Shown: piece by piece, positions 46,032-62,566 of the stretch
Position numbering within the stretch: the stretch's first letter is position 1
Layout of the letters: every line of letters begins with the position of its first letter
The notes under the pieces: generated by a model
Told to the model about the DNA's origin: nothing
The model's database searches: none
What the model saw: only the letters and a program-made list of their open reading frames with translations
NCBI GenBank assembly: GCA_949292105.1
Contig: CASEYK010000016.1
Coordinates: 9,256 to 73,255, forward strand
Direction: 5' to 3'
From: an uncultured bacterium
Lineage (GTDB): Bacteria; Bacillota_I; Bacilli_A; RFN20; CAG-826
DNA length: 64,000 nucleotides
Program-made: the position numbers and the translations under genes

Positions 46032-46108
<77 letters not shown>

Positions 46109-46138
46109 TTTAATTCCCTAGCGCACGAAAAGCGGGTA

Positions 46139-46168
46139 GTGGAACAATTGATTAGTTCCACGTTTTTT
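46139..46168 (+). terminator. Terminator-like hairpin between tRNA-Ile and tRNA-Val
   Basis: GTGGAAC-aattgatta-GTTCCAC followed by GTTTTTT. Confidence 0.5.
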
Positions 46169-46219
46169 AAAAACAGAATGATTGAATTTCCTCTCCCTTT
46201 TTGTCGGTAGTGAAGAAAC

Positions 46220-46294
46220 GGACACTTAGTTCAGCGGGAGAACGCTTCCTTCACACGGAAGAGGTCACAGGTTCAATCCCTGTAGTGTCCACCA
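46220..46294 (+). tRNA. tRNA-Val (anticodon CAC by manual reading), CCA encoded
   Basis: Acceptor GGACACT/AGTGTCC, D-stem GTTC/GAAC, anticodon stem CTTCC/GGAAG with loop UUCACAC, T-stem ACAGG/CCTGT with loop TTCAATC, A73, CCA. Confidence 0.7.
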
Positions 46295-46302
46295 TCTAAT
46301 GT

Positions 46303-46379
46303 GCCGTCTTAGCTCAACCAGGCAGAGCAACTGATTTGTAATCAGTAGGTTGTAGGTTCGATTCCTATAGACGGCACCA
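46303..46379 (+). tRNA. tRNA-Thr (anticodon UGU), CCA encoded
   Basis: Acceptor GCCGTCT/AGACGGC, D-stem GCTC/GAGC, anticodon stem ACTGA/TCAGT with loop UUUGUAA, T-loop TTCGATT, A73, CCA. Confidence 0.75.
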
Positions 46380-46390
46380 TTATTATTTAT

Positions 46391-46475
46391 GCAGCTGTGG
46401 CGGAACTGGCAGACGCACTAGACTTAGGATCTAGCGAGGAAACTCATGCAGGTTCAATTCCTGTCAGCTGCACCA
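46391..46475 (+). tRNA. tRNA-Leu (anticodon UAG), class II with a long variable arm, CCA encoded
   Basis: Acceptor GCAGCTG/CAGCTGC, anticodon stem CTAGA/TCTAG with loop CUUAGGA, ~13-nt variable arm, T-stem GCAGG/CCTGT, A73, CCA. 85 nt long. Confidence 0.8.
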
Positions 46476-46623: not shown

Positions 46624-46652
46624 TTGACTAACTCAAAAACAGATGTATTATT
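46624..46652 (+). promoter_or_regulatory. Putative sigma-A promoter of the fructan utilization operon
   Basis: TTGACT (46624-46629), 16-17-nt spacer, TATTAT/ATTATT (46646-46652). A cre-like element lies downstream and the AAGGAG SD is at 46676. Confidence 0.45.
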
Positions 46653-46690: not shown

Positions 46691-48031
46691 ATGAGAAATT
46701 TTAAATTACCAATTTTATTGTCTCTTGTCATGGCGGGCGCTTTAGCAATGACTGGATGTGGAAAATCATCAGAGGATGAAAGCGGCGTCAAGATTATTAC
46801 TGTTTGGGTTCACAAGAATGAAACAGAAGATGAAGGCAAAATTTACAAGCAAATTCAAACTAATTTCAACAATGCTGGGTTAACAACTTCAACTGGTCTC
46901 CAATTAAAAATGTCTATGTCGTTTTGGGGTTCAACTCTTGAAGATAAAATTAATGCTTCTATTATGACTAATTCCTTACCGGATATCATCGCTGTAGATA
47001 GTTCAGATGTAGCAGCAAAAGTGTATAACGATATTATTGTTTCATTTGATGAGTATTTAGATTCTGAAACAAAAAATTCCTATGTCGATAGTGTAATTCA
47101 ACAAGGCACGATCGATGGCAAAATGTACTTTTTATCGGGTATGGAAGCTCCGGGAGGCTTGTACTACAATAAAACCCTTCTTAAATCAGTTGGTTACACT
47201 GATGATGATTTTGGAACATGGGAAAATCCTTGGTCTTGGAAAGATGTTCACGAGGCTCAAGAAAAATTAAAAGCTGCAGGTTTAGAATATCAAATCGCAC
47301 TAAACCAAAATTTTGGCACAGATGGAAATATGTATTTATATTCCGGTCTCGTTTATTCAGCTGGTGCAACATTTGGTGAAGAAAATCATGTTACTGAAGC
47401 TTTGACAACTGACGAAGCCATTGCGGGCATATCACAACTTGAATTATTCTATTCAAACGAAGGTTTGTCGAGCAATGAATCTTGGGTCTATAGCGGAACA
47501 AATGAAAATGCTTTTGCTTCAGAACTCATTCCTTTTGAAATTCACGGACCTTGGGATGCTAGAAAAATTAAAAAAGCTGATTCCAACTTTAAAAATGAGT
47601 ATGGTATCATGCCATATCCTGTTTATGAAGATGAAAATGGCAATAAGAGCGACATAATTGCTATTCCTTGTGGATCGTATGGTTTTGGTATCACTAATGA
47701 CTGTAAAAATGTTGAAGCAGCAACTATTGCTTTGACCTATTTAACTGGTGCTGATGCGTCAAAAATGATGTATGACGCTATCGGAACTTTCCCAACAAAC
47801 AAAGCTTTATTGGAAAGTATGGATGAATTTAAAAGTGGACCAGAAAAAGATTTAGCTGATTATTTGGTTAAAAATCAATACACAAGGCCACAAATGGTTA
47901 AATATCCAATATTAAAAGATGCTTATGGCGAAGTTTTAAACTATATCAAAAATATGAACCTCGTCTCTAATTACAACTTAGAACAACAAATCAGAGAACA
48001 AATGACAAGAGTCGATGACGCAAGAGCATAG
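46691..48031 (+). CDS. Carbohydrate ABC transporter substrate-binding lipoprotein (SBP family 1)
   Basis: Signal peptide with an AMTGC lipobox. ~446 aa, with the usual SBP_bac_1 topology. First gene of the sugar locus. Confidence 0.8.
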   Translation: MRNFKLPILLSLVMAGALAMTGCGKSSEDESGVKIITVWVHKNETEDEGKIYKQIQTNFNNAGLTTSTGLQLKMSMSFWGSTLEDKINASIMTNSLPDIIAVDSSDVAAKVYNDIIVSFDEYLDSETKNSYVDSVIQQGTIDGKMYFLSGMEAPGGLYYNKTLLKSVGYTDDDFGTWENPWSWKDVHEAQEKLKAAGLEYQIALNQNFGTDGNMYLYSGLVYSAGATFGEENHVTEALTTDEAIAGISQLELFYSNEGLSSNESWVYSGTNENAFASELIPFEIHGPWDARKIKKADSNFKNEYGIMPYPVYEDENGNKSDIIAIPCGSYGFGITNDCKNVEAATIALTYLTGADASKMMYDAIGTFPTNKALLESMDEFKSGPEKDLADYLVKNQYTRPQMVKYPILKDAYGEVLNYIKNMNLVSNYNLEQQIREQMTRVDDARA

Positions 48032-48035
48032 CAAT

Positions 48036-48971
48036 ATGAAAATTGAAAATGTTGTTGCCAAAAGAAAACGAAATTCTTTTACACTCGGCAAGACTGAATA
48101 CAATACAAAAGAAGCATTGGCTGGTATCTTGTTTTTAGCGCCTTGCTTTATTCTTGCGGTAATCTTTGTTTTTCTACCAATTGTCATTTCGCTGGCATAT
48201 GCTTTCACTGATGCTAATATGTTGCGGCTAAATAAAGCTGAATTTATTTGGTTTGATAATTTTATAAGGGCCTTCAATGATGTTGAAATTAGGAACGCCT
48301 TAAAAAACACACTCATTTTCGTTTTAGGTGTTATGCCATTACAATTTGGTACAGCGTTAGGCTTAGCTTTGCTGCTCAATAAAATAAAAAGATTTAACAC
48401 TTTCTTTAGATGGGCATTCTTTGCTCCTGTGATGCTCTCTTTGGCTGTGACTTCTATGTTGTGGATGAATCTATTAAATCCACAAGAAGGACTGATTAAT
48501 ACTTTTTTATTGGCACTTGGAGCAAATCCAATGCTGTTTTTAGAAGATCCTAACCAAGCGATGGGTTGCATAATTTTTATTTCTGCATGGCAAGGTGCAG
48601 GTTACCAAATGTTGATCATTTTAAGTGGTTTAAAAAATATTCCAAAAGATATGTATGAGGCTGCAAGTATCGATCGCGCTAACAAGTGGCAACAATTTTT
48701 GCATGTAACCCTTCCATCGTTAAAACCAACCCTTGTTTTCGTTTTTATTACAATGCTTATTGGTGCTTTTAGGATTTGCGTTCAGCCGATGATTATGACT
48801 GGTGGTGGACCTTTGGGTTCAACTATGACAATGTCATATTACATTTACAAAACTGGCGTTGAATACCGCGATGTAGGTTATTCAAGTGCTATTGCGCTCT
48901 TATACACAATCATTATTGCAACAATTTCATTAACATTAAGAAAAGTGTTAGGAGGGGACAACCAAGCATAA
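48036..48971 (+). CDS. Carbohydrate ABC transporter permease (MalF/UgpA-like)
   Basis: 6-TM protein with an EAA-like loop (ASIDRANKWQQFLHVTLPSLKP). The ORF-track start at 48015 overlaps the SBP; ATG 48036 is preferred. Confidence 0.8.
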   Translation: MKIENVVAKRKRNSFTLGKTEYNTKEALAGILFLAPCFILAVIFVFLPIVISLAYAFTDANMLRLNKAEFIWFDNFIRAFNDVEIRNALKNTLIFVLGVMPLQFGTALGLALLLNKIKRFNTFFRWAFFAPVMLSLAVTSMLWMNLLNPQEGLINTFLLALGANPMLFLEDPNQAMGCIIFISAWQGAGYQMLIILSGLKNIPKDMYEAASIDRANKWQQFLHVTLPSLKPTLVFVFITMLIGAFRICVQPMIMTGGGPLGSTMTMSYYIYKTGVEYRDVGYSSAIALLYTIIIATISLTLRKVLGGDNQA

Positions 48972-48972
48972 T

Positions 48973-49884
48973 ATGGAAAATATCAATGTCAATCAAATTC
49001 CAACCCTTCACAAACCTAGAAAGAAAATTTCGTTTGGCAAAATCGTTATCAAAATTTTATTTGCTCTTCTTTGCCTCGCTCTAGCTTTTATCTTCTTATT
49101 TCCAGTTGTTTGGATGGTTTCCAATTCATTTAAAACAGATGAACAAGTGTACGCTCAAATGACGAGCATTTGGACCTTTTTTCCTCCTTCTTGGAATATA
49201 AGTGAATGGTTTGTATCATATATCAAACTATTCCAAACATTTGAATATTTTGGTCGTTCAATTTTAAATTCAATTTTATATTGTACAGTTACTATTGTTG
49301 CTGTTTTGGTCATCAATTCTTTAGCGGGATATGCTCTAGCAAGATTTAAATTTCCTGGCAACAAAGCCATGACAACCGTTATTTTGCTTTTGATGATTAT
49401 TCCTGTTGAAACAAGTATCGTTCCAACATACTTAATTCTTTATTACTTAGGATTATTGAGTGAACCTGTAAATATTATTGGTTACTTATTGCCCGGCTTT
49501 GCTTCGCTTTTTTATACATACATGTTTAGACAATATTTTTTGGGTATGCCAATTGAAATAGAAGAAGCAGCACGCATTGATGGATGCTCGAGAATTGGCG
49601 TGTTTTTCCGCATGATTGTTCCATTAGCTAAACCTATTTTTGCAACAGTAGCTATTTTCACATTTATGGGACAATGGAATGAGTACATCTTTGCACAATT
49701 TATGTTTCCTAATCCTGCATATCAACCGCTTCAAGTATTTTTACAACTAGTTAATACAGCCACCCCGAAAGATATTGGTGTTGTTATGGCTTCTTTGACC
49801 TTTTCAACAATTCCAATCGCCTTAGTTTACATCTTCGCTCAAAAATATATCGTCGAAGGAGTCAGTTTTACTGGTCTAAAATAA
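48973..49884 (+). CDS. Carbohydrate ABC transporter permease (MalG/UgpE-like)
   Basis: 6-TM protein with an EAA loop (EEAARIDGCSRIGVFFRMIVPLAKP). Confidence 0.8.
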   Translation: MENINVNQIPTLHKPRKKISFGKIVIKILFALLCLALAFIFLFPVVWMVSNSFKTDEQVYAQMTSIWTFFPPSWNISEWFVSYIKLFQTFEYFGRSILNSILYCTVTIVAVLVINSLAGYALARFKFPGNKAMTTVILLLMIIPVETSIVPTYLILYYLGLLSEPVNIIGYLLPGFASLFYTYMFRQYFLGMPIEIEEAARIDGCSRIGVFFRMIVPLAKPIFATVAIFTFMGQWNEYIFAQFMFPNPAYQPLQVFLQLVNTATPKDIGVVMASLTFSTIPIALVYIFAQKYIVEGVSFTGLK

Positions 49885-49885
49885 T

Positions 49886-52249
49886 ATGAAAAAAAGTTTA
49901 TCCTTATTAACCGCTGTCTTTTCTCTTTCAATCGTTCTTTCGGCTTGTCAATCTAATGATGACGAGCCTAATTATAATAAACATTTGCTTGCTTATTTTG
50001 AATTCAAACAAAATAATCAAAGCCTTTTAATTGATTCTTTAAATAATGTCGATCCTGTGAATGTTAATTATCATTTACTCGATTCATCGACTATTTCAGA
50101 ACCTAAAAATGTTCAATTTAAAGAAGGCATTTTCAATGAAGCAATGGTTTTTGATGGATATTCAACTTTTGCGAGTATCGAAAGCAGTGAATTAATGATT
50201 TCAGGGTCTAATTTTTCTATCAGCGCTTGGATTGCTCCTCGCTCATATAATTGGTCAGATCAAAACAGCGATGATGATTTAATTCAAGCCATTGCTAGCC
50301 AATATTACAAAGATGATTCATTCGCTATGGGCTTTCAGCTTGGTTATAGACGCGATGGCAAGGTCACATTTGGGGTTGGGACTGAAAGCGGATGGTATCA
50401 ACTATATGATGAAGGTAGCCCAATCAATCGTTATGAATGGAACCATATCTTAGCTACTTTTGATGGTGTAAATGGATCAATTCGATTATATGTGAACGGC
50501 AAAATCGCCAATCGTCTAGAAATTGAAAAAAATAGTAAAATTGTCGGATGCGATTTGCCTCTGTTAATTGGTAAAAACACTGTCTCAACTTCTTCAGGGG
50601 ATTGTTCAGAAGGAGTGATTTCTGGTCTACTTGATGAACTGAGATTGTACAATACTACGCTCTCTTATGATGACTACAAAGATTATTATTCTTCATGCCT
50701 AGTTAACGGCGAAATCAAAGATGTAAATTTTGAAGACGTATGGATTCAAAATACTTTAACTGACGATTTATACAAACCACAATACCATGGTGGCCCATAC
50801 GAACATTGGATGAATGAACCTCACGCCCCAATTTATTATAACGGTGTCTATCATTTATTTTTCCAATTCAATGAAAATGGTCCATATTTTAATGATGCCA
50901 AAGGAATTGCATGGGGCCATTTAACAAGTACAGACATGGTCGAATGGACACCTAGAAAAGAAGTAATTGTGCCAACGGCTAATACTGTTTGTCCAGATGG
51001 AGTTTGGTCGGGAGGGGCAACTTATGATAAAGATGGCGTCCCAGTGTTATTTTTTACTGCCGGTGACTATACTCATTCTGGCATGATTTCAAATCAAAAT
51101 ATTGGTCTTGCAACACCTAAAGATTTAAGCGATCCATATTTGACAGAATGGGTCGTTTCGGATGAGTTGGCCGTCGAACAAAAAAGTGGGCAAGGAAGAA
51201 CGGGCGAATTCCGCGACTGCCACTTAATTAAAGATGGCGAAAATTATTATATGTTAGTTGGTAGTGGCGATGAAAATTCAAATCGCGGGACAGTTTTAAT
51301 CTACACGACTAATACAAGTAAAAATGATTATTTTCACAACTGGGAATATAAAGGTCATTTATTTGACTATGCAAATAATGATTCAAAATATGGCACATCA
51401 TGGGAATTGCCGGTGCTTCTCCCCTTAAAAGATGAAAACGGGAATGACTCAAACAAATGGGTTTTAATAATCTCCCCAGCACCGGCTTCCACCGCTGATA
51501 ATAACATCATCTATTGGATTGGCGAGTTTGACAAAAATACATGTCGATTTGTCTCTGATTTTGCTGGTCCTAGAAGAATGGACTATGGTAAAAATGTTTT
51601 TACTGGTCCGAGCGGCTTTATCGATCCAAACACTGGTGAGGCTATGATGTTTTCAATTATGCAATCGCAAAGAGAATCAAGCGATTTAGCAAGTTCAGGT
51701 TGGTCACATAATGTTGGGTTAACAAGACGCTTAAGATACAATTCTCAAACAAACGATTTAAGTATTTCAATTATTGATAATGTTTCCAATTTATCAACCG
51801 GCGTTTTATACGACGCAACTAATTGTACAATTAGTGATATCAACCGAGCGATTTCTAATATTAAATCAGACATGTTTAATATCAAAATCGTTATCAACAA
51901 TCTAACTTCAAAATTTTCAATTAAAACAAGAATGACAGAATCACAAAGCGAATATACACTAATCTACGCTGATCCATCTAGCAATATAGTTGGAGCAGTT
52001 AATACATTAAATTTGAATAATTCATCATTAAGTTCAGGTGAATTTATTGGAAATATAAATGATTGCAGTCAATTATCAATAGATTTATATGTCGACCGCA
52101 GCCAAATCGAAGTAGTGTTCAATGATGAAAAGACAATCTCGTGCCGAAGTTATCCAAAGGATTTAAACGCTCTATTAACGCAACTTGAAGGTAGTGAAGA
52201 CATAGTAATCGACAGTTTTGTTATGAGTCAAATGAGGTCTATTTTCTAA
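49886..52249 (+). CDS. Surface lipoprotein: concanavalin/LamG-like lectin domain + GH32 beta-fructofuranosidase (levanase/inulinase-like)
   Basis: LSAC lipobox. N-terminal LamG_3-like domain (..LDELRLYNTTLS..). GH32 motifs WMNEPHAPIYYNGVYHLFFQ (WMNDPNG block), FRDCHL (RDP) and a C-terminal beta-sandwich (IDLYVDRSQIEVVFNDEKT). Confidence 0.8.
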   Translation: MKKSLSLLTAVFSLSIVLSACQSNDDEPNYNKHLLAYFEFKQNNQSLLIDSLNNVDPVNVNYHLLDSSTISEPKNVQFKEGIFNEAMVFDGYSTFASIESSELMISGSNFSISAWIAPRSYNWSDQNSDDDLIQAIASQYYKDDSFAMGFQLGYRRDGKVTFGVGTESGWYQLYDEGSPINRYEWNHILATFDGVNGSIRLYVNGKIANRLEIEKNSKIVGCDLPLLIGKNTVSTSSGDCSEGVISGLLDELRLYNTTLSYDDYKDYYSSCLVNGEIKDVNFEDVWIQNTLTDDLYKPQYHGGPYEHWMNEPHAPIYYNGVYHLFFQFNENGPYFNDAKGIAWGHLTSTDMVEWTPRKEVIVPTANTVCPDGVWSGGATYDKDGVPVLFFTAGDYTHSGMISNQNIGLATPKDLSDPYLTEWVVSDELAVEQKSGQGRTGEFRDCHLIKDGENYYMLVGSGDENSNRGTVLIYTTNTSKNDYFHNWEYKGHLFDYANNDSKYGTSWELPVLLPLKDENGNDSNKWVLIISPAPASTADNNIIYWIGEFDKNTCRFVSDFAGPRRMDYGKNVFTGPSGFIDPNTGEAMMFSIMQSQRESSDLASSGWSHNVGLTRRLRYNSQTNDLSISIIDNVSNLSTGVLYDATNCTISDINRAISNIKSDMFNIKIVINNLTSKFSIKTRMTESQSEYTLIYADPSSNIVGAVNTLNLNNSSLSSGEFIGNINDCSQLSIDLYVDRSQIEVVFNDEKTISCRSYPKDLNALLTQLEGSEDIVIDSFVMSQMRSIF

Positions 52250-54303
52250 TGAAAAAGAATGTGTCCAAATTGCTTACAGTTTTATTGTTATTAAGCTGCG
52301 TTTCTTGTGGAAACCAGAATAATTTTGAAGAATATTCTTTTGCTAATGCTGGATTTGAAACTGGTCTATTGACAAATTGGACAGCGACTGGAGATGCCTT
52401 TTCTGATAACAGTGTTACAATTGCAGATTCAAGCAAGGATAAAATTCATGTTGTTGGTAATTTCTATTTAAATGGTGAATCGAGTGGAAACGCCGCCACC
52501 GGCACCCTTCAGTCCACAACATTTAAACTAAATGGAAATGGCAAAATTGGTTTTATGATTGGTGCTGGTAAAAATCAGTCGCTTGTTTATGTTTCTTTGC
52601 ATTTAGAAGACACTGGTGAAGAAATAGGAAGAGTTAGCAATAAATTTTTTAATAGCGAAAATCCAAACAATCGCATGTATCGCATTATCCTTAATGCTTC
52701 GGAATACATTGGTGAAAATGTTTATTTAAAAATTGTCGATAATGATGCTCAAAACGATGGGTATAACTATATCATGGTTGATGATTTTATTGTTTCTTAT
52801 TTAGGAGATGAAGATGATGGCTCGCTGGTAAGCGATGCAAGAAAATATACCGAAGCAAATAAAAATAATGTTGGCAATGAATATCGCCATACATATCACT
52901 TAATGCCAACCATCGGTTGGATGAATGATCCGAATGGATTTACATACTATGATGGTTATTATCATTTATTTTATCAACATAATCCTTATTCATCCAATTG
53001 GGATACTATGCATTGGGGACATGCTATTTCGAAAGATTTAGTCGTATGGGAAGATGCTGGTGTCGCCTTGGCTCCAGATAAAACATATGATAAACTCGGT
53101 GTCTACTCTGGAGGAGCGATTGAGAAAGATGGAACTCTTAATTTGTTATATACATGTGTCGGTGATGGTGGGGTTCAGCAGCAAGCTCTAGCTACTAGCT
53201 ACGATGGTTATAATTTCACTAAACGCGCGAGTAATCCTGTTATTTCTTCTTCACAAAGGCTCAATTCGAGAGTTACTGACTTTAGAGATCCGTATTTATT
53301 TGAAAAGGATGGCGTTTACTACACCTTAATCGGAGGAAAGCTTGAAGGCGAAGGTGGACAATTAATCTTGTATTCTTCTAAAGATTTAATGAACTGGAAA
53401 ACCATTGGTAGTGTTTATTCTTCAACTTTGACGGGCGGCGGCATGTTTGAATGCCCAAATTTAGCCTTTTTTGGTGATAAAGAAGTTATCATTACTTCTC
53501 CCCAATCAATTCGAGATAGCGAAATATCAAATTATCAAAACATTCATTCAGTCACATATCAGATTGGCGACATCGATTTTGAAAATGGCGTTTTTACAAA
53601 TGAATTTGGTCAAGATTCCATGGAGGAATTTGACAAAGGATTCGATTTTTATGCCACACAAGTAATAAGTGAGGAAGATCGAGTTATTATGCTCGCTTGG
53701 ATGAATATGTGGTCGAGGAGTTATCCAACTGCAACCGATCAATGGGCAGGTGAAATTACTTTGCCTAGAGAATTAGAACTGGTTGATGGACATATTTATC
53801 AAAAACCGATACGCGAAATTGAAAATTACTATCAAAACGAGGTTATTTTGAGCAATATTGATGCAAATAATGAAAATATTGCATTAGATTTTAGAGGTAA
53901 TACTCTTCATTTAAAAGCAGAAATAGATGTATCAAGTTTAAATGGCGGGAAGAGTGGTTTTCATCTATTTAAAGGTTCGGATGAAGAGACAAGCATTTAT
54001 TATGATGATTCACTGGGGATGGTTGTCTTTAATCGAAAAAATAGTGGAGTTGAAATCGATTCTTTTGATGATGATGGCGAGCTAAATGTCCGCTACGCAT
54101 CTATTGAGCCGATTAATGATGTTATTAAATTAGAATTCTTTTTAGATGTTTCGAGCATCGAAGTTTTTATTAATGATGGTTACTATACCATGAGTGGCTT
54201 GGTTTACCCAAGTGAAGGTAGTGATGGAGTTGAATTTTTTGCCACTAATGGCAGTGCTACTTTAAATTCACTCGTCAAACATGATGTGATTGTGGGAGCG
54301 TAA
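52249..54303 (+). CDS. Surface lipoprotein: N-terminal CBM-like beta-sandwich module + GH32 beta-fructofuranosidase
   Basis: LLSCVSCG lipobox. ~155-aa N-terminal module opening NAGFETGLLTNWTATGDAF and ending YIGENVYLKIVDND..DDFIV. GH32 motifs GWMNDPNG, FRDPYLF, MFECPNL and the C-terminal LDVSSIEVFINDG. Confidence 0.85.
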   Translation: MKKNVSKLLTVLLLLSCVSCGNQNNFEEYSFANAGFETGLLTNWTATGDAFSDNSVTIADSSKDKIHVVGNFYLNGESSGNAATGTLQSTTFKLNGNGKIGFMIGAGKNQSLVYVSLHLEDTGEEIGRVSNKFFNSENPNNRMYRIILNASEYIGENVYLKIVDNDAQNDGYNYIMVDDFIVSYLGDEDDGSLVSDARKYTEANKNNVGNEYRHTYHLMPTIGWMNDPNGFTYYDGYYHLFYQHNPYSSNWDTMHWGHAISKDLVVWEDAGVALAPDKTYDKLGVYSGGAIEKDGTLNLLYTCVGDGGVQQQALATSYDGYNFTKRASNPVISSSQRLNSRVTDFRDPYLFEKDGVYYTLIGGKLEGEGGQLILYSSKDLMNWKTIGSVYSSTLTGGGMFECPNLAFFGDKEVIITSPQSIRDSEISNYQNIHSVTYQIGDIDFENGVFTNEFGQDSMEEFDKGFDFYATQVISEEDRVIMLAWMNMWSRSYPTATDQWAGEITLPRELELVDGHIYQKPIREIENYYQNEVILSNIDANNENIALDFRGNTLHLKAEIDVSSLNGGKSGFHLFKGSDEETSIYYDDSLGMVVFNRKNSGVEIDSFDDDGELNVRYASIEPINDVIKLEFFLDVSSIEVFINDGYYTMSGLVYPSEGSDGVEFFATNGSATLNSLVKHDVIVGA

Positions 54304-54305
54304 AA

Positions 54306-55739
54306 ATGAAGAAGAAAAATTATCGCCCGCTTTTACATATCACTCCAGACCATGGTTGGATAAATGATCCAAATGGCTTTTCATTTTTTAATGGTTTGTA
54401 TCATGTTTTCGCTCAATATTATCCGCATGAACTTAGGTGGGGCCCAATGCATTGGGCACATTTTGTCAGTACTGATTTAATCAATTGGAAACAAGTTCAA
54501 AACGCTCTAAAACCCGATCAGCCTTATGATCAAGATTTTGGATGCTTTTCGGGCAGTGCATTATCCATAAATAATAAGCACATACTTGCCTATACAGGTG
54601 TGGCAAATAACAAGCAAACGCAATGTTTAGCGACTTCAACCGACGGACTTAATTATGTCAAACATCCGTTAAATCCAATTATTGATGAGCGATTATTACC
54701 TTCTGGATATGATGTTGCGAACTTTAGGGATCCTAAGATTTTTTATCGGCACGGTTCTTTTTATATTTTAGTTGGCGCCAAACGAACCGACGGCATTTCT
54801 TCTTTGCTCCTTTTTAGAGGCGATTCGTTTGATCATGTTGAATTTGTTCGCTCTATTTTTGATATGTCAGGTCTCGGTGCAGGAATGTTGGAATGCTGTG
54901 ATATTTTATTCTTAAATGAAAAGGATGATCGATGCATACTTTTGTGTTCACCTCAATTTAAAAAATCACCATGTCCATACCATTATCAAAATATTCATTC
55001 TACTCTTGCTTTATTAGGTGAATTAGATTTTGCAAATTGTTGTTTTATTCCTTCCAGCCCTGAAATTGAATTAGATCTTGGCTTTGATTTTTATGCAGCA
55101 CAAACTCTTGCTCGTGATAATCATTTTTATCTAATTGCGTGGGAATCAATGTGGGATCGAAATTATCCAAGTGAACAGTGTGGTTTTGTCGGTCAATTAA
55201 CATGTCCCCGCGAATTAACAATTATCGATAATTCCATCCATCAGAAGTTTGTTTCTTCTCTAGATAATTATTTTGCTGAAGTTAATTGTTTTGAAGAATT
55301 GCTGGTTGACCACCAAAAAGATTTTTTTAGTCAAGATGAAGTGAGAAGATATCGTTTTGAAGTTGAAGCAGATGGCAATTATTCAATTATTTTATATTCA
55401 AATGGTAAAACAGGTTATGTAATTAATTCCGATATAAAAACAAAACTTGTGCAATTCAATCGTTCTTGTTCGAATGAAAAAATTTCAAATGTTAATGGCA
55501 CTCAAGCCGATGTGCGCAATATTCGCATTGAAGAAGGATGCCAAACTATCAGTTTTGACATTTTAATTGATCATTGCTCGTGCGAAATTTTAATTAACAA
55601 CGGGAGATACTCTTTCACTTCATTGTTTTATCCCGATGGTGAATTTGGCATTTCGTTTATGAATAAGGCGAACAAAATGATTATAAAAAATTTAGTGATT
55701 AGCGGATTAGTAAACAAGGAGGCTTACAAAGATGATTAA
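54306..55739 (+). CDS. Cytoplasmic GH32 sucrose-6-phosphate hydrolase / beta-fructofuranosidase (ScrB-like)
   Basis: No signal peptide. Motifs HGWINDPNG, FRDPKIF, MLECCDI and the C-terminal IDHCSCEILINNG. Confidence 0.8.
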   Translation: MKKKNYRPLLHITPDHGWINDPNGFSFFNGLYHVFAQYYPHELRWGPMHWAHFVSTDLINWKQVQNALKPDQPYDQDFGCFSGSALSINNKHILAYTGVANNKQTQCLATSTDGLNYVKHPLNPIIDERLLPSGYDVANFRDPKIFYRHGSFYILVGAKRTDGISSLLLFRGDSFDHVEFVRSIFDMSGLGAGMLECCDILFLNEKDDRCILLCSPQFKKSPCPYHYQNIHSTLALLGELDFANCCFIPSSPEIELDLGFDFYAAQTLARDNHFYLIAWESMWDRNYPSEQCGFVGQLTCPRELTIIDNSIHQKFVSSLDNYFAEVNCFEELLVDHQKDFFSQDEVRRYRFEVEADGNYSIILYSNGKTGYVINSDIKTKLVQFNRSCSNEKISNVNGTQADVRNIRIEEGCQTISFDILIDHCSCEILINNGRYSFTSLFYPDGEFGISFMNKANKMIIKNLVISGLVNKEAYKDD

Positions 55740-57945
55740 AAAGCATAGTTTTATTATTCCTTTACTTTTTACAGCATTGTTATTCGTTGGTGGCTGTTCA
55801 TCTAACAAAGATGATTCATCATCAATTTATGATGATGAGATTCGAAATGGCAGTTTTGAAAATGGCTTAACTTCTTGGACCATTGGAGGCCTTGGAGGTT
55901 TTAGCGAAGAAGACGTTTCAACAATTGATACATTTTCTGATGGCCAACCAACCGAAAAAGTTGGAAATAGTTTTTATGCTGGAGCTACTTCTTCACTACC
56001 TTCATTTACTGGCACATTAACTTCTGAGCCATTCAATTTAGGGGGAGTTGGTTATATTTCCCTTAAATTAGGAGCAGCTAAAAACGGAGAAAAATGTTAC
56101 ATCGAATTTTATGAAGTTGGAAAAGATGATGTTCCTTTATCTTTCTATCTAGATTACGATACTTCAACTGTTTATACCAAACTTATTAATACTGATTTTA
56201 ATGGAACAACAATCCGCTCATTAATGATGAGACATGTTGTCGATTTGCGTGAATATTTTGAAAAAGATATTTATATTAAAATTACCGATAATGACACTGG
56301 ATCAGATTACACTGATTATTCTTTTGTTAATTTAGATGATTTTAGAGTTTTAAAAACAGCTCAGGAAAAAAATGATGCTTTAGTTGAAAGAGCTGATCAA
56401 TTGCTTCAACACGGAGAAGATGACATTGATGCTGAAAATCCTGTCGAACAACTCCGTAATGGTGGTTTTGAAACAGGCGATACATCATATTGGAAAGCTA
56501 TTTCTGGTGATGCATTTTTAAGCGAAGATATGGTTATTTCTTCAAGCGAAATGTATTGGGGCAACAGGCTTTATCACGCTGATGGAAATTATTTCTTAAA
56601 CAACATAAGTAGCGGTGAAGAAAAAGTTGGCAAAATGCGCTCAGAAAAGTTCATTGTTACAGATCAGGGCGATAATCAATCATACGCTACTTTCATGATG
56701 GGTGCGGCCAAACAATCAACAACCTATGTTGCGGTTAATGATGCTGAAACAGGTAGCGAGCTTATTCGAGTTTATAACAAAGCGTTTAAGGATCCAGGAT
56801 TAGCTCAAGGATTAGTAAGATACTACATTGATTTAAGTGAGTATATTGGTCAAACTCTTTACTTTACGATTGTCGATAATGCTACTGGCGATGGATTCGC
56901 ATTTATTGAAGTTGATGATTTTGAAATAAATCTATCTCAACAAGAAGTAATAAACGGCATCGCTGAACTTCGCCTGTGGGCAAACGATTTGGATGATATG
57001 GAAGCAAAATCAGATTATATCTCTGCATACAATGGGGGAATTTCTTTCCCTATTTCTGGAAATGCTCCAGTGGTTATAGAAGAAAATGGCTATGCCTTAT
57101 CATTAACAGTTGCTCCTAAGGTTATGAATTTAAACCAATTATTTAATCAAGTTATAGTTGTGGATGATTATACAGCAACTGATGATTTGACAAAAAATAT
57201 AGAAGGAATAACCTTTAATGGTGATGAATTAGATGGCGATTATACCAGTTTTGAATTAAATGTCGGAGAATATATAGTCTCGTTGTCTTTTACTGATACT
57301 TATCAAAATAAGACAACAACTAAAGTAAAAATAACAGTAGTTGAGAGTTTAAGTTACGATAGCACTATTGAAAACGGCGACTTTGAGTACGGGAATTTAA
57401 ATGGTTGGACAGTTGTGAGCGGAAATGTTAACACGAGCAATGCTATTGATAATGCCTCTACATTCTGGGCCGAAGCCATTCCATTCAACAAATCAGGAGA
57501 GTATTTCTTCAATGGTTGGAATGCTTGCGAAGTTGAGGCGGATGGATATTCTCTTCGCTCGACAACATTTACGCTAGGTGGCGTCGGTCAAATTAGTTTC
57601 AAACTTGGAGGTCATTCGAGCAAATTAGTTGTCAGAGACGAAGCTGATAATGTTATTGCCGAATATCGAAATTATGCTTTTGCTGATGTGAATTTTCCAA
57701 ATGTTAGCGAAGGTTGTCGCTTGGCAACAATGAATACATATGTTGCTGACTTATCAGAATATATTGGTGAAAACCTTTATATAGAAATCGTTGATGAAGT
57801 AATTTCTGAAGGATGGGCAGTTGCATTCTTTGACGAGATTAATGTTTATCACGAACAAACAATCAACATAGCCGAGGAGTTTGATGTTGTTGAACAATAT
57901 GGCGTTCAAACAAAACTGCCATGGCTAGAAGCTAAAAGTAATTAA
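55732..57945 (+). CDS. Non-catalytic surface lipoprotein built from three tandem CBM4_9-like beta-sandwich modules
   Basis: FVGGC lipobox. Three ~160-aa repeats. Each opens N-G-x-F-E-x-G (IRNGSFENGLTSW / LRNGGFETGDTSYW / IENGDFEYGNLNGW). Each contains F.LGG.G.IS.KLG and ends E-Y-I-G-[EQ]-x-L-Y-x-x-I-V-D...DDF. No catalytic motif. Confidence 0.6.
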   Translation: MIKKHSFIIPLLFTALLFVGGCSSNKDDSSSIYDDEIRNGSFENGLTSWTIGGLGGFSEEDVSTIDTFSDGQPTEKVGNSFYAGATSSLPSFTGTLTSEPFNLGGVGYISLKLGAAKNGEKCYIEFYEVGKDDVPLSFYLDYDTSTVYTKLINTDFNGTTIRSLMMRHVVDLREYFEKDIYIKITDNDTGSDYTDYSFVNLDDFRVLKTAQEKNDALVERADQLLQHGEDDIDAENPVEQLRNGGFETGDTSYWKAISGDAFLSEDMVISSSEMYWGNRLYHADGNYFLNNISSGEEKVGKMRSEKFIVTDQGDNQSYATFMMGAAKQSTTYVAVNDAETGSELIRVYNKAFKDPGLAQGLVRYYIDLSEYIGQTLYFTIVDNATGDGFAFIEVDDFEINLSQQEVINGIAELRLWANDLDDMEAKSDYISAYNGGISFPISGNAPVVIEENGYALSLTVAPKVMNLNQLFNQVIVVDDYTATDDLTKNIEGITFNGDELDGDYTSFELNVGEYIVSLSFTDTYQNKTTTKVKITVVESLSYDSTIENGDFEYGNLNGWTVVSGNVNTSNAIDNASTFWAEAIPFNKSGEYFFNGWNACEVEADGYSLRSTTFTLGGVGQISFKLGGHSSKLVVRDEADNVIAEYRNYAFADVNFPNVSEGCRLATMNTYVADLSEYIGENLYIEIVDEVISEGWAVAFFDEINVYHEQTINIAEEFDVVEQYGVQTKLPWLEAKSN

Positions 57946-57955
57946 GGAGGAAATT

Positions 57956-59785
57956 ATGATGAAAAAGAATTTACTTTTAGGATTTGGCATCGTTGCTCTT
58001 GCTTCTGCTGCATTTGGAATATTAAGCAACGAGTCAAAAACAATTTCGTCAGTTAAAGCGGAAGATAATTCAACACTAGTGACATATATTCCTTTTAACA
58101 ATGACAATTTCACAATTGTAACAGATGAAGGAGTTGAAACAGAACTAGGTGATACATCAGATTGGGTTACTGGTCGATATGGTACATTTTGGAACTATAG
58201 GTATTTCAACGCTATGGATGATTTTTATGATGGAAATAGACAAGAAAGTTGGACTGGAACTATTACATCTAGAACATGGGTTCAACAAAATAAATATGTC
58301 ACTTTCACTCTTGGCGGTAACTCTCAGAATAAAGTTTTAATTAAGAATGAGAGTGGAGAAGTTGTTGCAACTGCAAACAATAATTTATTTAATGATCCGT
58401 ACTTATCAGTCAATATGATTACTAAAGTTGTTACTGTTCCAGAAGAATATATTGGTCAGACACTTCATCTTGAAATTATCGATTCAACAACAAATGGTTT
58501 TGGTATGACTACTTTTGGTGCGTTAAAGGTTAACCAAACTTTAGATGATGTTGCTCAAACAGTTGTTGCCCATATTGCTGAAACAAAATGGATTGTTGAC
58601 CTCAATGATGATTCTGCCCCGGCTAATACAAATACTCTTGCGGCTGACTATATCATCAATGTATATCGCACAGCCGATGAGTATGAACTTGTTAGAAATA
58701 ACGGTTTAATAATTAATGAAGATGGCAGTTTTACATCGCCATTAACTGATGTCGATGAAGGTTTTGAATCAAGTGGTTTAACGAATTGGGCGTATGACAT
58801 CGAATATTCAGACAATGGTAACGAAGAGGAACCTGCCAACTACTTTATTCCTTTCGCTTCTTCTATTTCGGAAGAAACATATGCTGGATGGATAGAACAC
58901 ATGCCTTTTAATAAAACCGGCAACAAATTTTACAAAGGATGGGAAGACGGATTTGATGAGGCAGCGAAGTATCGTTTATTATCTGCTCCATTCACGCTTT
59001 CTGGCACAGGACTTATTTCGATTAAAATGGCTGGCAATTCAGCCGCTTTACAAATTTTAGATGCATCCACACATGAACAATTGATGGAAGTCAACAATCA
59101 AGTATTTCTTGACAATGTTGATACTGTTGTTGGTGGCGGCAGATTATGCACTATGGTTCGTCATATCATTGATGCCAGCGATTATCTCGGCCAACAAATT
59201 GTCATCGCTCTTGCTGATAACCGAACAGGCGGTGGCTGGGGATGTGTCTTCTTTGATGAATTAATTACAAACTATCAGGCTTTGCCTTCGTTAAAATTGG
59301 ATACAATTGTTCAAAGTGGGACTATTAATGGCGAAGATGTCACTAATTATGGCGTTATTCGAGACACATATGTTGGATCTATGGATTCAACTTTTGGCCA
59401 AGCGTATACATTTATGAACAATTATTATGATACTTTGAGAAATTCAACTAATAATTTTTCATATTGTAGTATAATCTCTAGTGAAGAAGTCAAAAATGTT
59501 TTGGAAAGTTATGAAGCACTTCCTGAAGAAGTTCAAACAATTGTCCAAAACAGTGATGACTATTCATATACTGGCTCTATTTATTCAAGCGAAGTTCAAT
59601 TGTACAAAGTCATTGAGACAATCAACTACATTAATGGTCAAAACGACAATGCTGGAAATTTAAAATCATCATTTGGTGTTTTACCTGTTAAGAATAGCAT
59701 CGCGATTGCCATTGGTGTTTTATCGTTGACAGTATTCCTTTTCGCGGTTATTTTTGTCAGTAGAAAGAAAAAAACACATAACTAG
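57956..59785 (+). CDS. Membrane-anchored surface protein with two copies of the same CBM-like module (signal peptide + C-terminal TM anchor)
   Basis: Cleavable-type signal peptide. Two modules (..TFTLGGNSQNKVLIKN...EEYIGQTLHLEIID.. and ..FTLSGTGLISIKMAGN...SDYLGQQIVIALADN...FFDEL). C-terminal LPVKNS + hydrophobic helix + RKKKTHN. Confidence 0.55.
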   Translation: MMKKNLLLGFGIVALASAAFGILSNESKTISSVKAEDNSTLVTYIPFNNDNFTIVTDEGVETELGDTSDWVTGRYGTFWNYRYFNAMDDFYDGNRQESWTGTITSRTWVQQNKYVTFTLGGNSQNKVLIKNESGEVVATANNNLFNDPYLSVNMITKVVTVPEEYIGQTLHLEIIDSTTNGFGMTTFGALKVNQTLDDVAQTVVAHIAETKWIVDLNDDSAPANTNTLAADYIINVYRTADEYELVRNNGLIINEDGSFTSPLTDVDEGFESSGLTNWAYDIEYSDNGNEEEPANYFIPFASSISEETYAGWIEHMPFNKTGNKFYKGWEDGFDEAAKYRLLSAPFTLSGTGLISIKMAGNSAALQILDASTHEQLMEVNNQVFLDNVDTVVGGGRLCTMVRHIIDASDYLGQQIVIALADNRTGGGWGCVFFDELITNYQALPSLKLDTIVQSGTINGEDVTNYGVIRDTYVGSMDSTFGQAYTFMNNYYDTLRNSTNNFSYCSIISSEEVKNVLESYEALPEEVQTIVQNSDDYSYTGSIYSSEVQLYKVIETINYINGQNDNAGNLKSSFGVLPVKNSIAIAIGVLSLTVFLFAVIFVSRKKKTHN

Positions 59786-59797
59786 TAGGTAATAAGG

Positions 59798-60754
59798 ATG
59801 GGAAAAACAATTGTCGATATCGCAAAGATTGCGAATGTTAGCAAATCGACCGTATCTAGATATTTGAACAATGGATATGTGTCGAAAGAAGCTCAAGAGA
59901 GAATCAAACAAGCGATTGAATCAGAAAATTATGAGCAGAATTCATTTGGAAGAATGCTCAAACTGAATCGCTCCTTTGCTATCGCTTTATGCGTGCCGAT
60001 GATTTCCCATCCTTTTTTCGCAAAAATCACTGAAGAAATTGAAAACTGCGCATATGAATTTGGCTATAAACTGCTAGTCACTGATTCAGATAATAATCGT
60101 GCTAGAGAAGAAGAATTTATTCGTATGGTTTATAAAAATCAGGTCGATGGTATTATTTTTATCACTCATAACAAGTACGAATGTTTTGATTCTTCCTTAC
60201 CAATTGTTACAATTGATCGTCTATTTGGCGATAATGTCCCATGCATCACTTCTGATAATTACAACGCTACATATAACGCTATTAAATATCTCTTTGAAAA
60301 GGGATGCCACAATATTGGTTTTATCGGAGGCAGACCCCTTGTTAATTCAGAAGTGCTAGAACGATATCATGCTTATCTTGATGCTTGCAAAGATTTTGGT
60401 TTGCAGACATATGTCTCTTATGGAGATTTTAGGCATGGTGAAGAATACACTCATTCCAATGAATTTTTGCATAAGTATACAAATTTAGATGCCGTGTTTG
60501 CTACCTCTGATACATTTGGTTTTACAATTTATCGCGTGGCTACCGAAATGAAATATCCACAGCAATTAAAAATTATTACTTACGACGGCTGTATGAGCGA
60601 TTGGATTCAAAATCCAGCTTTTACAACCATCCGTCAAGATTTGAAAAGTATGGCTTTTAAAGTCGTGGATACTTTAATTAAAAGAATCAACAAAAAACAA
60701 GTTGAAAGCAAAATTGTTGTGCCAACCGAATTCATTATTGGAGAAACTACATAA
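59798..60754 (+). CDS. LacI-family transcriptional regulator (likely sucrose/fructan operon repressor)
   Basis: N-terminal HTH TIVDIAKIANVSKSTVSRYLNN, plus a periplasmic-binding-protein-like sugar-binding domain. Confidence 0.8.
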   Translation: MGKTIVDIAKIANVSKSTVSRYLNNGYVSKEAQERIKQAIESENYEQNSFGRMLKLNRSFAIALCVPMISHPFFAKITEEIENCAYEFGYKLLVTDSDNNRAREEEFIRMVYKNQVDGIIFITHNKYECFDSSLPIVTIDRLFGDNVPCITSDNYNATYNAIKYLFEKGCHNIGFIGGRPLVNSEVLERYHAYLDACKDFGLQTYVSYGDFRHGEEYTHSNEFLHKYTNLDAVFATSDTFGFTIYRVATEMKYPQQLKIITYDGCMSDWIQNPAFTTIRQDLKSMAFKVVDTLIKRINKKQVESKIVVPTEFIIGETT

Positions 60755-61680
60755 TGATTTTAATCGTCGGTGAAATATTGATGGATGTTTTTAAAGAACA
60801 TAACAATGTTGAGTCCCACCCAGGTGGAGCCCCTTTCAATGTTGCTTGCAATGTTGCTTTTTTTGGTGGCGATGTTGCTTTCTATGGATGCGTTGGCAAC
60901 GATGACTATGGAAACCAATTATATGAATTCTCAAAAACAATAGCTTTAAAAAAGAATTTGGTTCAACGACTAGGAAAGCACCATACAACTGTTGCGCTCG
61001 TCAGTTTAAATCAAGGTGAAAGATCATTTCGTTTTTTAAGAGATGACGGCACTGATTATCAATTTGATTTTGAAAAATTCAAAACAATTGACTTAAGCGA
61101 AATTAATATTGTCCATTTCGGTTCTTTAATGCTATCACATCAGTCTGGACGAGAATTTTTAAACAAAGCAATTGAATATTTACGTCAATTCCCTCATATT
61201 CAAATTTCATTTGATGTAAACTATCGCGATGATATTTTTGAAGACACTAATTCTAAATCGTTTTATTTAAATGTTATTGAGAAATCCGATTTGGTTAAAA
61301 TTAGCGAAGATGAAGTTCACTTTTTATCAGGATGTTCATCGATAGAAGAAGGTTTAAATCAAATTTTTCATTCACGACAGCATGTTTTTTTATCACTTGG
61401 TCAAGAAGGTTCATGCTATTACCACGAACAGAAACTTATAAAAGCAAAAACAATTAAAGTTCGCCCAGTTGATACGACAGGCGCTGGTGATAGTTTTTAT
61501 TCCTACATTTTGTACTGTTTGAATAAGGATAAGAATATTTTATTGGATACCATCAAGATTCAAAACATGTTGGAATGTGCAAATATTGTCGGTGCGTATG
61601 CTACAACAAAAAAAGGCGCTATTGGTGTTGTACCATCAGTAGATGTAATAGTGGAAATCCAAAAAAATGAAAAGAAATAG
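60754..61680 (+). CDS. PfkB-family fructokinase
   Basis: N-terminal LIVGEILMDVF...GGAPFNVA and the C-terminal DTTGAGDSF anion hole. Sits in a GH32 locus. Confidence 0.75.
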   Translation: MILIVGEILMDVFKEHNNVESHPGGAPFNVACNVAFFGGDVAFYGCVGNDDYGNQLYEFSKTIALKKNLVQRLGKHHTTVALVSLNQGERSFRFLRDDGTDYQFDFEKFKTIDLSEINIVHFGSLMLSHQSGREFLNKAIEYLRQFPHIQISFDVNYRDDIFEDTNSKSFYLNVIEKSDLVKISEDEVHFLSGCSSIEEGLNQIFHSRQHVFLSLGQEGSCYYHEQKLIKAKTIKVRPVDTTGAGDSFYSYILYCLNKDKNILLDTIKIQNMLECANIVGAYATTKKGAIGVVPSVDVIVEIQKNEKK

Positions 61681-62566
61681 TTTATATAATTTTTTCAATA
61701 AAAATAATGATAAGCCAAATTCCGATCGACTCCCATCAAATCGCTTTAAAGCTTATTTTGATATTCTTCGCAATCGATTTGGAAAAGTTGTTTTGCTCTC
61801 ACTCATTACAACTATTTTCTTTTTGCCACTGATTATCTTTTCGTTTTTTTGGAATGTTTACAGCAATTATTCTATTGAACAATTTGCCGTCGAAAACTCT
61901 GATCAAACTCTTATTTTATTTCAGAAATTTTCTCTTATTTCTATGCAATATTTATTTTCTATACCTCTTTTTATCATTGGCTTTATTGGCTTGGGAGGTA
62001 CTTTTTATGTCAGCAAGAAAATGGTGTTTCAAGAAGGAGATATTTTCCTGTGGAGCGATTTTTTCTCTGGCGTTAAGTCAAATATTAAATCATCCTTATT
62101 GAGCGGTGTATGTTTTTCTGTTTATCTATTAATTTACTTTATGAATATCTATTTTTATCCGATTGTTAGCGAAATTCCGTTTGCTGTTAAAATCATCCTT
62201 ATTATTTTACTGAGCATTATATTGGTTTTTGTTACTAGTTTTTGCTTATTTGTTCTCGCTAGTGCATCTATTTATCAGTTCAAATTTGTACCAACAGTTA
62301 AAAACAACGCTCTTTTAGCAGCTATCTTATTTCCAACGAATATTTTGATGTGCCTTCTCAGCCTCTTCTTTTTTATTGGTGCATTTTTATTGCCATACAT
62401 TATTATTCAAAGCATATTTTTATTGCTTATCATTTTATTTGGTTTTTCACATCTTGCTATTTCATTTAATCTTTATGCATTCAAAATGTTTGATAAACAT
62501 ATCAATATTCGGTATTCTCAAGAACTTACCGACAAAGGTTTAGATAAAGGCCAAAAGGAGGAATAA
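61667..62566 (+). CDS. DUF624/YesL-like integral membrane protein (sugar-operon associated)
   Basis: The N-terminus (..LYNFFNK..RF...FDILRNRFGKVVLLSLI..) and the 5-6 TM layout resemble the YesL family commonly linked to carbohydrate ABC operons. Confidence 0.45.
   Translation: MKRNSLYNFFNKNNDKPNSDRLPSNRFKAYFDILRNRFGKVVLLSLITTIFFLPLIIFSFFWNVYSNYSIEQFAVENSDQTLILFQKFSLISMQYLFSIPLFIIGFIGLGGTFYVSKKMVFQEGDIFLWSDFFSGVKSNIKSSLLSGVCFSVYLLIYFMNIYFYPIVSEIPFAVKIILIILLSIILVFVTSFCLFVLASASIYQFKFVPTVKNNALLAAILFPTNILMCLLSLFFFIGAFLLPYIIIQSIFLLLIILFGFSHLAISFNLYAFKMFDKHINIRYSQELTDKGLDKGQKEE

Follow-up and report, generated by a model that had tools for sequence, protein, structure and literature searches.

SusE and SusF, and BT1761 of the levan polysaccharide utilization locus, are non-catalytic, lipid-anchored proteins of the Bacteroidota that carry several β-sandwich glycan-binding domains and are encoded in glycan loci beside surface enzymes. 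In Ruminococcus bromii, the starch-directed protein Sas6 combines a CBM26 with a CBM74 (CBM, carbohydrate-binding module) and is anchored by way of a dockerin and the amylosome. Here we describe T737, a protein of 737 amino acids (aa) that invites comparison with both. Its gene (55732..57945, + strand, ATG start) lies in a stretch of 64,000 nucleotides (nt) from an uncultured gut bacterium of the Bacillota_I (contig CASEYK010000016.1 of assembly GCA_949292105.1, positions 9,256 to 73,255 of the forward strand), which was analyzed as a whole and is called the window below. T737 is a predicted lipoprotein in which one type of module, very probably CBM38, occurs three times; no catalytic domain is recognizable in it. 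We consider it likely, with a probability of roughly 0.7, that T737, displayed at the cell surface on a lipid anchor, binds fructan without catalysis and works by the mechanism proposed below. The identical protein is encoded on 17 metagenome contigs, and 132 homologues were found.

The founding sequence of CBM38 (formerly X39, the "inulin-binding module") comprises residues 32-389 of the cycloinulo-oligosaccharide fructanotransferase (CFTase) of Paenibacillus macerans (AAG47946.1). According to PMC10076258, these residues form two β-sandwich domains, and this founding region has low-micromolar affinity for both inulin and levan (Lee et al. 2004, cited therein). The location of CBM38 in CFTase is N-terminal (PMC8291819). 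The CBM38 literature and the PDB copies that were searched contained one binding study, from 2004, and no solved structure. CBM66 of the Bacillus subtilis levanase SacC also binds fructan and is likewise attached to GH32 (PMC13003330).

Domain architecture of T737

The T737 start codon lies 9 nt downstream of a strong, consensus-type Shine-Dalgarno sequence (AAGGAGG, 55716..55722, + strand, read from the sequence) and overlaps by 8 nt the upstream gene for a 477-aa GH32 protein, the stop codon of which occupies 55737-55739. A preliminary description of this DNA had placed the gene between that cytoplasmic GH32 and a second module protein, with the same overlap, and this reads out of the sequence directly. 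The N-terminus, MIKKHSFIIPLLFTALLFVGGC, matches the lipoprotein signal pattern. Signal peptide and lipobox together cover aa 1-22 (55732..55797, + strand; VGGC, Cys 22), as judged from sequence and conservation. With a signal peptide that ends in the lipobox MIKKHSFIIPLLFTALLFVGG-C22, T737 has the marks of a lipoprotein. At least 90% of 39 orthologues retain Cys 22, and a lipobox is present in nearly all of the T737 homologues inspected.

The mature part of the protein is dominated by three copies of a module of roughly 170 aa, all predicted to be CBM38-like β-jelly rolls. Module 1 (aa 33-222, 55828..56397, + strand) was delimited by hidden Markov model (HMM) search, alignment and AlphaFold2 (AF2) model and contains a type-specific insertion; its profile match spans aa 33-215 with an independent E value of 2e-52. 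Module 2 (aa 236-405, 56437..56946, + strand), supported by HMM, an AF2 model of the single module and Foldseek, matches the profile over aa 238-407 (independent E 1e-58), and module 3 (aa 541-715, 57352..57876, + strand), supported by HMM and sequence identity, matches over aa 542-712 (independent E 9e-58). The presence of three copies is thus confirmed far beyond chance. When the module profile was searched against the six-frame translation of the window, the only matches besides T737 were two in the downstream protein U609 and one at the N-terminus of a 684-aa GH32 protein. The three modules of T737 are mutually just 25-28% identical, and each is 45-70% conserved across orthologues. They are old, divergent copies and not near-identical repeats.

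Between the second and third copies is a spacer of 135 aa (aa 406-540, 56947..57351, + strand), which was characterized with its own profile and by DSSP analysis of the AF2 model. It is predicted to consist of two helices and a small Ig-like β domain of about 80 aa. By its own profile it matches only itself, so it is no further module copy, and Pfam found no match in it. Homologues of T737 carry Bact_surface_Ig-like domains. After module 3 the protein ends in a conserved tail of 22 aa. The preliminary claim that the lipobox is followed by only three tandem modules therefore holds for the three copies and fails on the "only", given the spacer and the tail.

Searches of Pfam and NCBIfam revealed no catalytic, esterase or transporter domain in T737. 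Its sole Pfam match is to CBM_4_9 (PF02018), below threshold (19.4 bits; cut-off, 25.9), and the alignment covers only the first 27 or so residues of module 3. T737 thus falls outside the Pfam family CBM_4_9 while sharing its fold class. NCBIfam returned just a sub-threshold match to the NTTRR-F1 motif. With three profile matches, a lipobox at Cys 22 and no Pfam or NCBIfam enzyme, the protein is the triple-module lipoprotein without a catalytic domain that had been described earlier.

Relationship of the module to CBM38

Relatives of the module are found in GH32 proteins of Paenibacillus. P0407, a GH32 protein of 1333 aa from P. polymyxa, contains the module at residues 76-245, 261-390 and 1169-1329, the first of these scoring 176 bits with the module HMM, and P0445 is its 1338-aa orthologue in Paenibacillus sp. 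LX16. LX16 is known to produce CFTase (PMC4835578). From their size and layout, and from the LX16 strain, P0407 and P0445 are probably CFTases. Module 3 of T737 shares 48% identity with the first module of both P0407 and P0445 (E 2e-47 to 2e-49), making it the copy nearest to the CFTase-type N-terminal module and placing it nearer to that module than to the two other copies in T737. For modules 1 and 2 the corresponding identity is 29-34% (E 1e-16 to 1e-26). By sequence, then, the T737 modules are homologous to repeated modules found at the N- and C-termini of CFTase-type GH32 proteins.

Domain layouts point the same way. A GH32 protein of Defluviitalea (D. raffinosedens) is annotated by dbCAN as CBM38(44-189)+CBM38(221-367)+CBM38(409-527)+GH32(808-1121)+CBM38(1313-1448) (PMC7355431), and P0188, P0401 and P0382 have modules at positions that mirror these coordinates almost one for one. 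P0188 was considered as the D. raffinosedens protein itself and was rejected, as the assembly differs. An inserted position of CBM38, within a GH32 propeller, has been reported too (PMC13000452), and the same arrangement is seen for the present module. Neither "fructanotransferase" names nor the accession AAG47946.1 turned up in the cluster look-ups. Because module 3 is 48% identical to modules of the CFTase type, whose N-terminal region founded CBM38, the T737 module is very probably CBM38. It follows that tandem arrays of the module are not new: the preliminary description had taken them to be undescribed, and they occur both in CFTase and in the dbCAN-annotated GH32 (PMC7355431).

CBM66 corresponds to Pfam PF06439 (3keto-disac_hyd), which T737 does not match, and a CBM66 identity was ruled out on this ground. 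Nor was any CBM66 structure among the top 50 Foldseek matches. Some GH32 proteins carry PF06439 and the present module together. Examples are P0429-P0435, levanases of the Bacillus/Priestia type with CBM66 (PF06439), in which one module sits inside an insertion of about 600 residues that splits the GH32 domain (in P0432, at residues 526-684).

An exhaustive profile search of cluster representatives found 2,635 at E ≤ 1e-3, among them 341 at E ≤ 1e-30, with typically 2-10 module copies per family protein. A word-indexed profile search found only short single-module proteins; the family became visible through the exhaustive search of representatives. Among 29 long module-bearing representatives, GH32 was the only catalytic Pfam domain (11 of the 29), the other domains being LamG_3, Ig-like domains, SLH and cell-wall-binding repeats. 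Module and GH32 were combined in 19 of 308 proteins, and the association with GH32 that characterizes CBM38 is therefore also a property of this module. Relative to the GH32 catalytic domain the module may be N-terminal, C-terminal or inserted within it, and partnership with GH32 in all of these positions gives it the signature of an accessory fructan CBM. Stand-alone single-module proteins of 210-320 aa (P0122, P0131, P0144) occur in Cohnella, in Paenibacillus and on many metagenome contigs; one cluster of single-module proteins has 108 members.

Predicted fold and conserved residues

AF2 models of the full-length protein and of module 2 alone were confident, with pLDDT values of 88.9 and 94.9, respectively, and module 2 was predicted to be an all-β jelly roll. 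A β-sandwich, as expected of CBM38, is thus indicated by the module 2 model and by the Foldseek comparison. The best Foldseek matches of module 2 in the PDB were the porphyran-binding CBM 8xmz, CBM4-2, the alginate CBM 8zqf, CBM16 and CBM35, with the gingipain K1/K2/K3 adhesin domains and MAM domains also among the best. E values ranged from about 1e-5 to 1e-4 and template modeling (TM) scores from 0.5 to 0.7, at no more than 18% identity. The full-length model retrieved generic multi-jelly-roll proteins (reelin, CBM51) and was uninformative. The models agree with the earlier expectation of a lectin-type fold over an enzymatic one, predicting a CBM-type β-jelly roll and no catalytic domain.

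At the sequence level, the module profile had only a weak match in the PDB, to a CBM61 (2xom, E 0.0055), and whole T737 had just a 29-residue match to an NGxFExG motif; no solved structure of the module was found by sequence in the PDB copy searched. Residues that vary neither among the three module types nor among their orthologues are N, F, E and W near the start of the module, G, S, F and G later in it, and two Asp near its end. The invariant N/E/D pattern would presumably fit a structural Ca2+ site of the kind found in CBM4, CBM6, CBM22 and CBM35, not a catalytic site.

The surrounding fructan locus

The genes from 46691 to approximately 62566 are all on the + strand, separated by tiny gaps or overlapping, and form a complete fructan-utilization locus in a chromosomal core region. 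The locus opens with an ABC importer (46691..49884), comprising a lipoprotein solute-binding protein and two permeases (Pfam SBP_bac_1 and BPD_transp_1), and a promoter-like site at 46624-46651 precedes the solute-binding-protein gene. Three GH32 genes follow on the + strand. GH32_787 (49886..52249) encodes a 787-aa lipoprotein with LamG_3 and GH32 domains by Pfam; its core resembles the CFTase type, with 35% identity over about 750 aa to the LamG-GH32 core of P0407. GH32_684 (52249..54303) encodes a 684-aa lipoprotein with GH32N and GH32C at aa 217-675 by Pfam, and the module at its N-terminus (approximately 52336-52812) has an independent HMM E value of 7e-40. The third GH32 (54306..55739), of 477 aa, lacks a signal peptide by sequence and Pfam analysis and would be cytoplasmic.

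Because GH32_787 and module 3 both match P0407, the window encodes as separate lipoproteins the parts that are fused in Paenibacillus. This split-versus-fused arrangement supports the view that T737 is functionally coupled to the surface GH32 enzymes.

U609 (57956..59785, + strand), identified by BLAST and the module HMM, is a second non-catalytic module protein of 609 aa, and its gene starts 10 nt 3' of T737. It has an N-terminal signal peptide, modules at about aa 70-198 (approximately 58163-58549) and aa 303-442 (approximately 58862-59281), an unannotated stretch of about 125 aa and, at the C-terminus, a transmembrane helix that would serve as anchor and carries a KKKTHN tail. The other four proteins that the locus exports have a lipobox instead. 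Pfam found no match in the C-terminal region of U609. A LacI-family regulator and a PfkB fructokinase, both assigned by Pfam, are encoded next (59798..61680, + strand). The fructokinase gene is overlapped at its end by a gene for a predicted membrane protein of 299 aa (61667-62566), which has a weak match to DUF624 (YesL-like) and may be part of the fructan operon.

Directly upstream of the locus is a cluster of four tRNA genes (46032-46472). Farther away, at 16-29 kb of the window, lies a ribosomal-protein/SecY/RpoA operon. The segment 16000-37000 as a whole is GC-richer and A-skewed; it holds this operon, including Map, followed by dihydropyrimidine-dehydrogenase-like genes, a NuoF-like subunit, an [FeFe]-hydrogenase and the cysteinyl-tRNA synthetase (CysRS). 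Gene content of this kind marks an anaerobic chromosomal core context.

Genomic context of T737 homologues

T737-like genes occur in GH32/ABC/LacI loci in nine of the 11 lineages sampled. Candidatus Alloenteromonas pullicola and a second metagenome-assembled genome (MAG) have a syntenic locus with a T737 orthologue that is 50% identical. Seven more lineages, represented by P0065, P0043, P0075, P0059, P0104, P0054 and P0027 (27-50% identity), also have the gene in GH32/ABC/LacI loci, with a PfkB gene visible in four of the seven. A LamG-GH32 gene usually lies directly 5' of the T737-like gene in the sampled GH32 loci, and a second non-catalytic module protein follows the T737-like gene in most of the sampled fructan loci.

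In the two other lineages, the homologues P0081 and P0060, which have 5-6 modules, are encoded beside genes for GH66 dextranase, GH31 and GH97 and not beside GH32. The GH66-linked homologues (locus L008, 10001-13549; locus L010, 8001-11630) have an N-terminal aBig_2 domain, and GH31 and GH97 are both in L008. This context suggests that the module family has been re-targeted to α-glucans in these organisms, and it hints that CBM38 may not be restricted to fructans and may be broader than the CAZy records.

The relatives of T737 come from MAGs of Bacillota or "Tenericutes". Lipid anchoring as an adaptation of wall-less organisms was considered and rejected, as the T737-like proteins of other lineages, including one from a MAG labeled Clostridia, carry lipoboxes.

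Proposed function and alternatives

We propose that T737 is exported by the Sec pathway and then lipidated at Cys 22, and that its three divergent CBM38-type modules are presented on the stalk-like spacer, exposed at the cell surface. The modules would bind chains of β-fructan (inulin and/or levan), their combined avidity holding the polymer at the membrane. U609, anchored by its C-terminal transmembrane helix, would contribute two further modules. The two lipoprotein GH32 enzymes could cooperate with these proteins by cutting the surface-held polymer to oligosaccharides, which the solute-binding lipoprotein and the two permeases would import, and the cytoplasmic GH32 and the fructokinase would complete the pathway under LacI control. 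The parts would be co-transcribed. The preliminary description had named fructan as the candidate ligand. All the computational tests shifted in favor of that reading, which gains indirect support from the predicted CBM-type fold, from the GH32 partner, from the 48% identity to the CFTase-type module, from the locus context in nine of 11 lineages and from the lipoboxes of nearly all homologues.

Several points weigh against this interpretation. We infer the binding, localization and expression of T737, as we do those of its stand-alone homologues. The CBM38 assignment was reached by proxy, through CFTase-type proteins and dbCAN layouts. The structural similarity is modest, with TM scores of 0.5-0.7 and identities of up to 18%, and it extends to adhesin and MAM domains that are not carbohydrate-binding. 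With just 29-35% identity to CFTase-type modules, modules 1 and 2 could have another ligand, and specificity within the module family is unfixed because P0081 and P0060 adjoin GH66, GH31 and GH97 genes. T737 might be a surface protein that binds a glycan other than polymeric fructan, some or all of its modules recognizing a different dietary or microbial glycan, such as an α-glucan or dextran, or only short fructo-oligosaccharides that are passed on to the binding protein of the transporter. The dextranase-linked homologues with their 5-6 modules would suit this alternative, as would the low mutual identity of the three module types (25-28%) and a fold class that hosts many specificities. We nevertheless think it unlikely, as T737 and its close relatives lie in GH32 loci in every sampled case, module 3 shares 48% identity with the N-terminal module of the CFTase type, and the same module is fused to GH32_684 of the locus.

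The gingipain K1/K2/K3 adhesin and MAM domains among the Foldseek matches, the Ig-like spacer, the surface Ig-like domains of homologues, and the conserved second module protein, which suggests a complex, could instead indicate that T737 is mainly an adhesin for host mucus, food particles or other cells, or a scaffold that assembles the GH32 lipoproteins by protein contacts, and not a binder of soluble fructan. Such a role seems to us quite unlikely for a module that is appended to GH32 enzymes and occurs in thousands of proteins, given also that the N-terminal region of CFTase, which has this layout, binds inulin and that the conserved features of the locus are those of fructan use and not colonization genes. 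Finally, jelly-roll folds are known to host enzymes, for example GH16 and some polysaccharide lyases, and several acidic residues of the module are invariant, so that an unrecognized fructan-acting hydrolase, lyase or transferase on a jelly-roll scaffold can be conceived. This is very improbable. Pfam, NCBIfam and PDB sequence searches revealed no similarity to any catalytic family, the module is always accessory to a complete GH32 domain in multi-domain proteins, and the invariant N, E and D residues resemble what we take to be the structural Ca2+ site of related CBMs.

A wider and distinctly more tentative proposal can be added. T737 and U609 might be the founding examples of a conserved two-protein "split-CBM38" apparatus for fructan capture in monoderm gut Bacillota, in which the modules that are joined to CFTase-type GH32 enzymes in soil Paenibacillus have been detached onto dedicated proteins with a lipid or transmembrane anchor. 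The three module types might then serve different features of fructans (β-2,1 versus β-2,6 linkages, chain ends versus internal positions), with re-targeting to α-1,6-glucan in the GH66 loci. We regard this as possible but doubtful; if true, CBM38 would be a polyspecific family, not an inulin-only one.

Significance

No prebiotics are more widely used than inulin-type fructans. The levan utilisome of Bacteroides is well studied, whereas extracellular fructan capture in Gram-positive or wall-less gut bacteria is largely undescribed. The T737 family is common in gut metagenomes, where its members are annotated merely as "hypothetical"; it would mark organisms that attack polymeric fructan, beyond short oligosaccharides. 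The modules of T737 are tractable single-domain targets for a first CBM38 structure and ligand map. The paired T737/U609 architecture and the GH66-linked relatives are open leads.

Comparison with known systems

The likeness of T737 to the SusE/SusF proteins and BT1761 is one of architecture and setting, and we take it as a functional analogy only. The T737 locus has an ABC importer and belongs to a Bacillota-type organism without an outer membrane, whereas SusE and SusF accompany a SusC/SusD pair and have an outer-membrane anchor; neither an adjoining SusC/SusD pair nor such an anchor was found for T737. No sequence match or specific fold match of T737 to SusE or SusF was found, and the Bacteroides ovatus SGBP-B structure 6e57 appears among the generic full-length Foldseek hits. 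Of the earlier designation as a SusE/F analogue, the functional sense therefore survives and homology does not, because there is no SusC/SusD pair and no homology to SusE/F.

T737 and Sas6 may also be analogous, as both are extracellular Bacillota proteins made of CBMs and spacers only, with polysaccharide capture as the known or presumed task. They differ in CBM family, in ligand (fructan versus starch) and in attachment (lipobox versus dockerin and amylosome). The searchable literature contained no fructan equivalent of a Sas6-type multi-CBM protein. Because the SusC/SusD pair is missing and the modules differ, T737 stands outside the SusE/F, BT1761 and Sas6 families.

A further resemblance is to CBM38 of the P. 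macerans CFTase, with which T737 shares tandem β-sandwich modules of about 150-175 aa and an association with GH32. In CFTase and other GH32 enzymes these modules are appended to the catalytic domain or inserted in it, whereas T737 is a separate lipoprotein that is free of enzyme. No description of stand-alone, lipid-anchored proteins composed only of CBM38, or of fructan-binding lipoproteins in Bacillota, was found in the fructan, CBM and CBM38 literature searched. Tandem CBM38 was already known; what T737 adds is the stand-alone lipoprotein form, as the putative dedicated fructan-capture part of a locus of the Gram-positive type.

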